This document shows, one piece after another, positions 6,001-9,000 of a stretch of 64,000 bases of DNA. Position numbers: made by a program. The DNA is taken from the NCBI RefSeq assembly GCF_055900595.2, contig NZ_CM148325.1; one strand, given 5' to 3'. Numbering within the stretch: position 1 is the first letter of the stretch; each line of letters starts with the position of its first letter.

Positions 6001-9000
6001 ACCTGAACGCGATTTGAATCAATATCAGCCAGTTAAGAACAACTAGAATAGTGGCATTTGGCATGCAACTTAACGGACTGGCAAAATCATGGCAGAGAAA
6101 AGAAGAACCCGCTGGCAGCGGCGGCCAGGCACGACGGGCGGCAAATTACCGTGGAATGACTGGCGCAATGCCACGACCTGGCGTAAAGCGACGCAATTAT
6201 TACTGTTGGCAATTAATATTTATATTGCCATCACGTTCTGGTATTGGGTGCGCTATTACGAAACGGCAGGTAGTACGACATTTGTCGCCAGGCCAGGAGG
6301 CATCGAAGGCTGGCTACCGATTGCCGGTCTGATGAATCTGAAATATAGCCTTGCAACAGGCCAGTTACCGTCCGTCCACGCCGCCGCGATGCTGTTATTG
6401 GTCGCTTTTATCGTCATCAGTCTATTACTAAAAAAGGCCTTTTGTTCATGGTTATGCCCGGTTGGTACGCTTTCTGAATTCATCGGCGATCTCGGTAACA
6501 AACTGTTTGGTCGGCAATTTGTCCTTCCCCGCTGTCTGGATATTCCTCTGCGCGGCGTGAAGTATTTGCTGTTGAGTTTTTTTCTCTATATCGCGTTATT
6601 GATGCCCGCTCAGGCTATTCACTATTTTATGTTGTCGCCCTACAGCGTGGTGATGGACGTTAAAATGCTCGATTTCTTTCGTCATATGGGGACCGCGACA
6701 TTAATCAGCGTGACCGTTTTGCTGATTGTCAGTCTGTTTATTCGCCATGCCTGGTGTCGTTATCTTTGCCCATATGGCGCGCTGATGGGCGTGGTTTCGC
6801 TATTGTCGCCGTTTAAGATTCGTCGCAATGCCGAAAGTTGTATCGACTGTGGCAAATGCGCAAAAAATTGCCCATCGCGGATCCCGGTCGATAAATTAAT
6901 TCAGGTACGAACCGTGGAATGTACCGGTTGTATGACTTGCGTAGAGTCATGTCCGGTAGCCTCAACATTGACCTTTTCACTGCAAAAACCTGCGGCAAAT
7001 AAAAAAGCCTTTGCGTTGTCTGGCTGGTTAATGACGCTACTGGTTCTGGGGATTATGTTTGCGGTGATTGGTTACGCAATGTATGCGGGAGTATGGCAAA
7101 GCCCGGTGCCGGAGGAATTGTACCGACGCTTAATTCCGCAAGCGCCAATGATTGGTCACTAAATTAGCAACAAGCGGAACATCACCTCGCACGGGGTGAT
7201 GTTCACAAAATCACATTATTTTGATTTTGACATCATAGCTTTCAAGCCCGGTCATTTTTTCTCGTGCGGTGAAGCGAATTTCAGAGACTTCTTTCCCTGT
7301 ATTCTTGTTCAGCTCGGCGATTTTTTGCGCGATAAAGTCAGCGATTTCCGTTTCGGCTTGTTTTTTTAACTCTTCAATATTCACTGTTAACCTCTTCTGG
7401 TCTTAAAAGACAGCAACACGCCAGTAAGGTGTTGGTTCCCGGTCCCCTGGTCAGGTAAGAAATGTTATAAGCCATCTCCCCGAAAGATTCAATAATCAAC
7501 AGGTTATCGCTTACTATACATACAGCGTTGAAGAAAAATAAGGCAGATATAAAAAAGGCTCCACGAGGGAGCCTGATCTTATTTTGTGAAATCCAGCGGC
7601 GCATGGTCAGTGCGTATTTGCAGCGCGACGTTATCAAAGGTGATCATCGTCGATTTACAAAAAATACACTTTGCCCCTAAAGGATTTCGCTCCGTCACAT
7701 CGAATGCCGATGTGCGGTACTGTGAACCATGACAACATGGACAGCGGAAATGGAGATGTTGAGTAATAACGGCAACCTTAGAGCGTAACAACGTTCGCTG
7801 CCGCGGGACCACGTTGCCCCTGCTCAATAGAAAATTCAACTTTCTGATTTTCGTTCAGCGTGCGGAATTCATTGCTCTGGATGGCAGTGAAATGGACGAA
7901 AACGTCTTTGCTGCCATCATCAGGAGTGATAAAGCCAAAACCTTTATCTGCGTTAAACCATTTTACTAAACCAGTCATTTTATTAGACATATTTTACTTC
8001 CTTCATTTTGGGCCTTTCGGCAAACAGGGCTTTAATACAGAAACTACTTAGTGTTCAGGAGAGAGACTCAAAAGAAGGGGATAATGCCTGATAATGAGAA
8101 CTGCTTTAGTAAACTACTTTGTATGCTGTCTGTCTTTCAAACCGACGCAGCTATTAACGCATGATAATTGAGATTAAGCAAATTTTATTTTAGCCGTCCG
8201 GCGGTCTTAAATATCGCTGGCTTTATTTTATTAACCCCGTATAGTGCAGCGCAGTATTTTCAGTAAGGAATTTGTTTGTCCCGTAAAATGACAGGAATTG
8301 TCAAAACCTTTGATCGCAAAAGCGGCAAAGGATTCATTATCCCCTCCGACGGTCGTAAAGAAGTCCAGGTCCATATTTCCGCATTCACTCCCCGCGATGC
8401 AGAAGTGCTTATACCAGGATTACGCGTGGAATTTTGCCGCGTAAATGGCCTGCGTGGACCAACAGCGGCAAATGTTTATCTCTCTTAATATGACGCTGCT
8501 TGTTTAAAACTGACTGGTTTTATTGGAATAGATTAATAGTCAACACTACACATTATAACGCAAGTTACTTTTTCATCAAGAAACTAATACATTTGACCGA
8601 ATATCTCTGTACCTAATAGTTATAAACGCCACTTAACAGCCGGTTATAGTACCATTTGAAACTATATTACCAACAATAGTTAATAGCTTTCTCAACAATT
8701 TTCTTATCTTTAATTTATATTTTTCTAAGATTTATCTTATGCCCACGAGTCGTATTTCCAGAGGGAAATCGTTAACAATCCTATATTTCCCTCTGCGCGC
8801 CTTTCCTACCCGCAGTATATAGTGCAAGCGGTATGAGGAAAGGGAGATTTCACAAGGATGTTATACTCAAAGTAGATAATTCTGATCTCAAGCGTACGTA
8901 TTGTCCATGCGATGAATAAAGGAAAAGTTATGAAACACAAGTTTTCTGCAATCCTTATGGCCTTCATGTTGACGACGCCAGCTGCGTTTGCTGCACCAGA

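Follow-up and report, generated by a model that had tools for sequence, protein, structure and literature searches.

Introduction

The closest described counterpart of the gene studied here is gnsA of Escherichia coli K-12 (b4517, YP_588446.1; UniProt P0AC92; PDB 4XO1/4XO2), whose product is 100% identical to the GnsA encoded in the window, i.e. the whole 64,000-nt stretch of contig NZ_CM148325.1 that was analysed. GnsA is a 57-aa helical protein and has been quantified by shotgun proteomics (PMC10971172). According to PMC10607373 and bioRxiv 10.1101/2024.03.27.586906, which cite Sugai 2001 and 2004, unsaturated fatty acids increase when gnsA or gnsB is overexpressed, overexpression of GnsA also shifts the membrane lipids towards acidic phospholipids, and overexpression of gnsA/gnsB suppresses the growth defects of fabA6(Ts), secG-null, lapC190 and ppGpp0 fadR. 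The phenotypes are reported for the K-12 protein, to which GnsA of the window is identical.

Related genes are carried by prophages and phages. The gnsB gene of the cryptic prophage Qin, lambdoid phages (Tritos, PhiR42_1, mEp460, 2H10) and Citrobacter prophages encode 57-aa proteins that are 65-72% identical and belong to the same Pfam family. It is said that the true suppressor of fabA6 is gnsA and not sfa/ymcE, and work by Wei et al., which appeared in BBRC in 2015, reportedly claimed that GnsA is toxic and that its toxicity is neutralised by YmcE.

The start codon of gnsA is GTG. GUG is the start of ~14% of E. coli genes, and initiation from the group AUG, GUG and UUG reaches 10-100% of that from AUG (bioRxiv 10.1101/063800). 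In the case of lacI, the conserved GTG was shown to set the protein dosage (PMC11445065), and for lacI and other conserved-GTG genes, a GTG that is fixed strain-wide lowers translation yield compared with ATG (PMC11445065; bioRxiv 10.1101/063800).

Results

Identity of the gene

The gene lies on the reverse strand of the window.

7211..7384, minus strand: gnsA coding sequence, 57 codons plus TGA, product identical to K-12 GnsA

The reverse complement of this interval reads GTG AAT ATT GAA GAG ... TGA and translates as VNIEELKKQAETEIADFIAQKIAELNKNTGKEVSEIRFTAREKMTGLESYDVKIKIM*, or, written from the start, as (M)NIEELKKQAETEIADFIAQKIAELNKNTGKEVSEIRFTAREKMTGLESYDVKIKIM. The product matched the Pfam profile GnsAB_toxin (PF08178) with 122.3 bits (cut-off 27), residues 1-54 corresponding to profile positions 1-54 of 54, and all of its 57 residues agreed with PDB 4XO2, 'Protein GnsA' (100% identity). 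Together with the clean 57-codon translation, these matches bear out an earlier sequence-only reading of this DNA, according to which the stretch holds gnsA with an intact coding sequence. At the nucleotide level, just two substitutions separate the window gene from that of K-12, at 7340 and 7238, and both are synonymous. The gene order torS, yccM, gnsA, ymcE, ymcF, cspG, cspH, gfcA is the K-12 arrangement, inverted, and orthology to K-12 gnsA was assigned from the sequence identity and this conserved gene neighbourhood. Across Escherichia (eight sequences), the pN/pS of gnsA was 0.08, indicating strong purifying selection, and within E. coli (11 genomes) we counted four synonymous and no non-synonymous changes. 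The feature is the ordinary, already known chromosomal gnsA, with start, Shine-Dalgarno sequence and overlap all as in K-12.

The sequence-only reading had also remarked that gnsA is missing from the ORF track. The gene is indeed absent at the default threshold; GTG is not the reason, since a product of 57 aa falls under the 60-aa default cut-off of the ORF lister, and the six-frame ORF list does contain gnsA as a 57-aa ORF with a GTG start.

The start of gnsA is the GTG at 7384

7382..7384, minus strand: initiation codon GTG of gnsA, shared with K-12 and found throughout the genus Escherichia
7391..7395, minus strand: Shine-Dalgarno sequence AGAGG, placed 6 nt before the GTG
7403..7405, minus strand: TAA in the gnsA frame, 7 codons before the GTG, which rules out an N-terminal extension

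From 7384 the strand reads GTG AAT ATT GAA, and initiation on GTG, as read earlier from the sequence, was upheld by the signals around it. A Shine-Dalgarno sequence, for which a search upstream of 7384 had been proposed, is present as AGAGG at 7395..7391; its duplex with the 16S 3′ end has a free energy of -7.0 kcal/mol, within the top 4% of positions in 6000..9000. The probability of being unpaired was about average for both the Shine-Dalgarno sequence and the start. An upstream start of gnsA is impossible because TAA stands 7 codons up with no start codon in between, and no upstream in-frame ATG, GTG or TTG was found either in the window or in the other sequences searched, from 10 E. coli genomes and 6 representatives of other Escherichia species. 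In E. coli strains EC-10 and RX24, CAA replaces TAA; the next in-frame stop is then 23 codons up, and no start lies between. The sequence-only reading had named a conserved in-frame ATG further upstream as the finding that would overturn it; none was found, and the TAA at 7405..7403 closes the frame.

The position is also marked in the protein family, whose N-terminus MNIEELK / MKIEELK is conserved. The gnsA and gnsB-type genes share a start at the homologous codon and a Shine-Dalgarno sequence of the GAGG type. In Qin gnsB of K-12, the Citrobacter prophage, Franconibacter and phage Tritos, this codon is ATG and the Shine-Dalgarno sequence is similar; the Citrobacter start context, AGAGAGGTAAACA-ATG, nearly equals the AGAAGAGGTTAACA-GTG of gnsA. 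The start position of gnsA is thus confirmed by homology. Among database entries of GnsA, those of 63-91 aa were considered as true extensions and rejected, as they read through at the C-terminus, contain an internal duplication, or are fused by a frameshift to sequence of the ymcE region.

If the GTG were only apparent, translation would have to begin at an internal codon, either the ATT of codon 3 (7378) or the ATG of codon 44 (7255), both of which are in frame with gnsA, and the adjoining ymcF is indeed annotated with an ATT start. We consider this highly improbable, however. The spacing of the Shine-Dalgarno sequence, 6 nt for the GTG and 12 nt for the ATT, suits neither internal codon; the family as a whole conserves residues 1-3 (MNI), with ATG as the homologous codon 1 in the paralogues; a start at M44 would remove three quarters of the Pfam domain (residues 1-54); and the crystallised GnsA comprises residues 1-57.

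GTG is shared by E. coli and the genus Escherichia

The use of GTG had been read from the sequence as a peculiarity of this strain, and this part of the reading did not survive the comparison with K-12. In NC_000913.3, gnsA is annotated at 1052067..1052240 and begins GTG AAT ATT GAA, preceded by the same AGAAGAGGTTAACA. A 40-mer centred on the gnsA start, used as megablast query, matched 5412 of the 5426 complete E. coli genomes, and 4832 were identical over all 40 nt. A match requires an exact 28-mer, and the GTG occupies positions 21-23 of the query; each 28-mer of the 40-mer spans positions 13-28, and therefore every match includes the gnsA GTG. One genome per bacterial species was then covered by a scan with a degenerate pattern that allows ATG or GTG. 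It returned six other Escherichia lineages, among them E. albertii and E. whittamii, and all had GTG and an identical 24-nt upstream context.

The ATG at the homologous codon of the paralogues could be taken to mean that an ancestral ATG was mutated to GTG in this strain, altering GnsA expression relative to K-12. The alignment with K-12 has already refuted such a change, to which we assign practically no probability: K-12 itself carries the GTG, as do the 5412 E. coli genomes and the six other Escherichia representatives, and nothing except the two synonymous changes parts the window gene from K-12 gnsA. Since the paralogues use ATG, a fixed GTG characterises the chromosomal gnsA lineage of Escherichia.

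Some strains carry damaged alleles of the gene, one of which concerns a run of A residues near its 5′ end.

7361..7367, minus strand: A7 run in gnsA codons 6-8, intact in the window strain

An A6 allele, which frameshifts gnsA, occurred in 295 of the 5426 complete E. coli genomes; among the matches listed, the carriers are mostly named O157:H7 and the others are without serotype. In the RefSeq record of the O157:H7 strain Z910, the A6 gnsA is annotated as a frameshifted pseudogene. In E. coli KTa005 (NZ_CP147084.1; locus 1817..2604), IS1 truncates gnsA after ~25 codons and joins the locus to agp, and yccM, the tor genes and neighbours are deleted.

The overlapping ymcE frame

7374..7604, minus strand: annotated ymcE ORF, 76 codons, overlapping gnsA by 11 nt and evolving like non-coding sequence
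7579..7767, minus strand: ymcF, 62 codons, with ATT as its annotated start and strong purifying selection
7548..7574, minus strand: intrinsic terminator, a 7-bp GC-rich stem followed by T6, lying within the ymcE ORF just 3′ of where ymcF stops

The 11-nt overlap of gnsA and ymcE given in the sequence-only reading is accurate, as ymcE ends, stop included, at 7374, and the shared stretch is 7374..7384. The ymcE ORF of the window differs from that of K-12 by N9K and V54G.

This arrangement has been interpreted as a toxin-antitoxin pair. The Pfam families are named GnsAB_toxin and YmcE_antitoxin, and ymcE-gnsA is listed as such a pair in literature citing Wei et al. 2015. Under this interpretation, gnsA would be the toxin of a type II ymcE-gnsA operon and would be translated by coupling: ribosomes ending ymcE at its TGA (7376..7374) would re-initiate at the GUG 8 nt upstream, and toxin synthesis would be tied to antitoxin synthesis. 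The two small genes are adjacent, co-oriented on the same strand and overlapping by 11 nt, and a ymcE stop 8 nt downstream of the GTG fits a coupled pair. Within E. coli the overlap is also kept, and a degree of coupling to the translation of ymcE could therefore occur on read-through transcripts.

The properties of ymcE itself argue against this interpretation, however. The ymcE ATG (7604) lies inside ymcF and is without a Shine-Dalgarno sequence (+0.7 kcal/mol versus -7.0 for gnsA), and the frame is interrupted by the intrinsic terminator (7574..7556), which stands 30 nt downstream of this ATG. The terminator is conserved in Escherichia and is found also in the Qin and Citrobacter modules, directly 3′ of a ymcF-like gene. 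In the genus, the ymcE frame accumulated 12 synonymous and 27 non-synonymous substitutions (pN/pS 0.67). Within E. coli (11 genomes), ymcE showed 2 synonymous and 10 non-synonymous changes versus 16 and 0 for gnsA plus ymcF (Fisher p = 5e-6), ymcF alone having 12 synonymous and no non-synonymous changes. The ymcE ATG was replaced in four of the six representatives of other Escherichia species (AGG, AGG, AGG and ATA), and the frame was truncated or shifted in four of the six, whereas the start context of gnsA is identical there. Both gnsA and ymcF were intact in all sister representatives where sequence was available, ymcF being partly covered at one locus.

The distribution of ymcE points in the same direction. 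YmcE homologues were confined to Escherichia/Shigella and had ragged lengths, and no ymcE was found beside GnsA/B homologues outside Escherichia/Shigella; the Qin, phage, Citrobacter and Franconibacter loci examined were likewise without it. In an alignment, the 3′ two thirds of ymcE correspond to leader sequence that is non-coding in front of gnsB-type genes and of the gene in Franconibacter. Thus two defining features of a toxin-antitoxin system that were tested, an antitoxin under purifying selection as a conserved coding gene and an antitoxin family co-occurring with the toxin family across genomes, do not hold for YmcE. In these respects the label 'toxin-antitoxin', used both by Pfam and in the product names of RefSeq, fails, and 'YmcE antitoxin' appears to be a doubtful name. 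Taken together, we regard the translation of gnsA as a toxin gene by coupling to ymcE as improbable.

Whether ymcE codes for anything is a separate question. We lean slightly towards the reading that it is an accidental ORF, and not a functional coding gene, that runs from the 3′ end of ymcF over the terminator of cspG-ymcF and through the gnsA promoter and 5′ leader. Its doubtful coding status makes a modest lead at the level of annotation (Pfam PF15939 / NCBIfam NF007379). As for gnsA, ymcE evolves like non-coding sequence, is without a Shine-Dalgarno sequence, holds a terminator and is broken in sister species, which argues that gnsA is most likely translated independently of it.

Promoter and leader of gnsA

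7464..7492, minus strand: candidate sigma-70 promoter for gnsA, TTGAAT, 17-nt spacer, TATAAC, inside the ymcE ORF
7385..7461, minus strand: putative 5′ leader of gnsA, the last 53 nt almost invariant across Escherichia

The standard promoter scan demands a T as the final base of the -10 element and for this reason gave no match upstream of gnsA. In a relaxed scan, the candidate at 7464..7492 was the sole decent sigma-70 candidate, matching the consensus at 9 of 12 positions, and we infer that gnsA has its promoter there.

The conservation of the region was compared in eight Escherichia sequences as variant alleles per site, i.e. the extra alleles summed over all eight sequences. The value was 0.11 in the terminator, 0.51 in the next 47 nt, 0.13 in the promoter-like block, 0.02 in the last 53 nt before the GTG, and 0.17 in gnsA. 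In other words, the 53 nt before the GTG (7385..7437) held 1 variant allele in 53 sites versus 29 in the 174 nt of gnsA.

The putative leader was folded together with the gnsA start in search of a structure hiding the Shine-Dalgarno sequence or the GUG. The minimum free energy was -20.3 kcal/mol, weaker than that of shuffled sequences (z = +1.24), so the folding gave no evidence of structure, and an Rfam scan of 6900..8700 found nothing over the gnsA leader.

Neighbouring genes and elements

7778..7990, minus strand: cspG, first gene of the cluster

The Rfam model of the cspA thermoregulator (RF01766) matched the leader and coding region of cspG (7724..8146, minus strand) with 160.9 bits. A match to STnc220 at 7541..7621 (minus strand), over the 3′ end of ymcF and the terminator, was below threshold (31.4 bits versus a gathering score of 60).

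Non-ATG starts were found in other genes of this region as well. The ATT of ymcF (7765..7767) is kept in the window, in every species of Escherichia that was examined and in the copy from the Citrobacter prophage, and it is annotated in K-12; a 2016 preprint gives infC and pcnB as the only confirmed AUU starts in E. coli. The start of cspH is TTG (8276..8278, plus strand) both in the window and in K-12. With TTG in cspH, ATT in ymcF and GTG in gnsA, three of the five annotated genes of the cold-shock cluster therefore start with a codon other than ATG.

On the other side of gnsA, a 9-bp inverted repeat (7178..7203; AACATCACC / GGTGATGTT) lies between the convergent genes gnsA and yccM. Neither strand shows a T-run, and one C at 7196 is absent from some strains; judged from its sequence, it may be a bidirectional hairpin terminator. 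Beyond the cluster, K-12 MG1655 carries IS1D between cspH and gfcA, whereas the window strain is without it (8500..8910).

Relation to the prophage module

The segment cspG-ymcF-[ymcE]-gnsA is paralogous to the lambdoid prophage module cspI-ynfQ-ynfR-ynfN-gnsB. The loci of gnsA and of gnsB-type genes share the order csp, ymcF/ynfQ-like gene, terminator and gnsA/B; in place of ymcE, the gnsB-type loci have a ynfN-like gene and an intergenic leader of ~170-200 nt. The gnsB-type modules sit between the prophage lysis genes (holin, lysozyme, Rz) and terminase, as at 5610..6668 of locus L003 (K-12 Qin), 1582..2674 of L004 and 715..1774 of L015. This likeness suggests that the chromosomal cspG-ymcF-gnsA cluster is of prophage origin, or the reverse.

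Discussion

The reading that best accounts for these results as a whole, and that we hold to be very probable, is that of an ordinary gnsA translated from the GUG at 7384..7382 by means of its own Shine-Dalgarno sequence, fixed in the genus and probably independent of ymcE. In the mechanism we propose, this GUG would initiate gnsA with fMet-tRNA under the direction of the AGAGG 6 nt upstream. Transcripts would probably come from the promoter inside the ymcE ORF and, in addition, from read-through out of cspG-ymcF. Translation would most likely proceed independently of ymcE, the 11-nt overlap being incidental.

The AUG at the same codon of the paralogues suggests that chromosomal gnsA may be tuned by its GUG to a somewhat lower translation yield; for lacI the GTG was shown to set the dosage, whereas for gnsA a dosage-limiting role is inferred.

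Two points bear on the annotation of such genes. ORF tracks with a 60-aa floor conceal genuine small genes, and GTG starts should be compared with a reference before they are called strain-specific. If ymcE is non-coding, GnsA and YmcE would form no toxin-antitoxin pair, and the conservation of ~53 nt before the GTG would be that of a regulatory leader element. One 'toxin-antitoxin system' would then leave the lists for E. coli, and the focus would shift to the expression of gnsA from its own leader.
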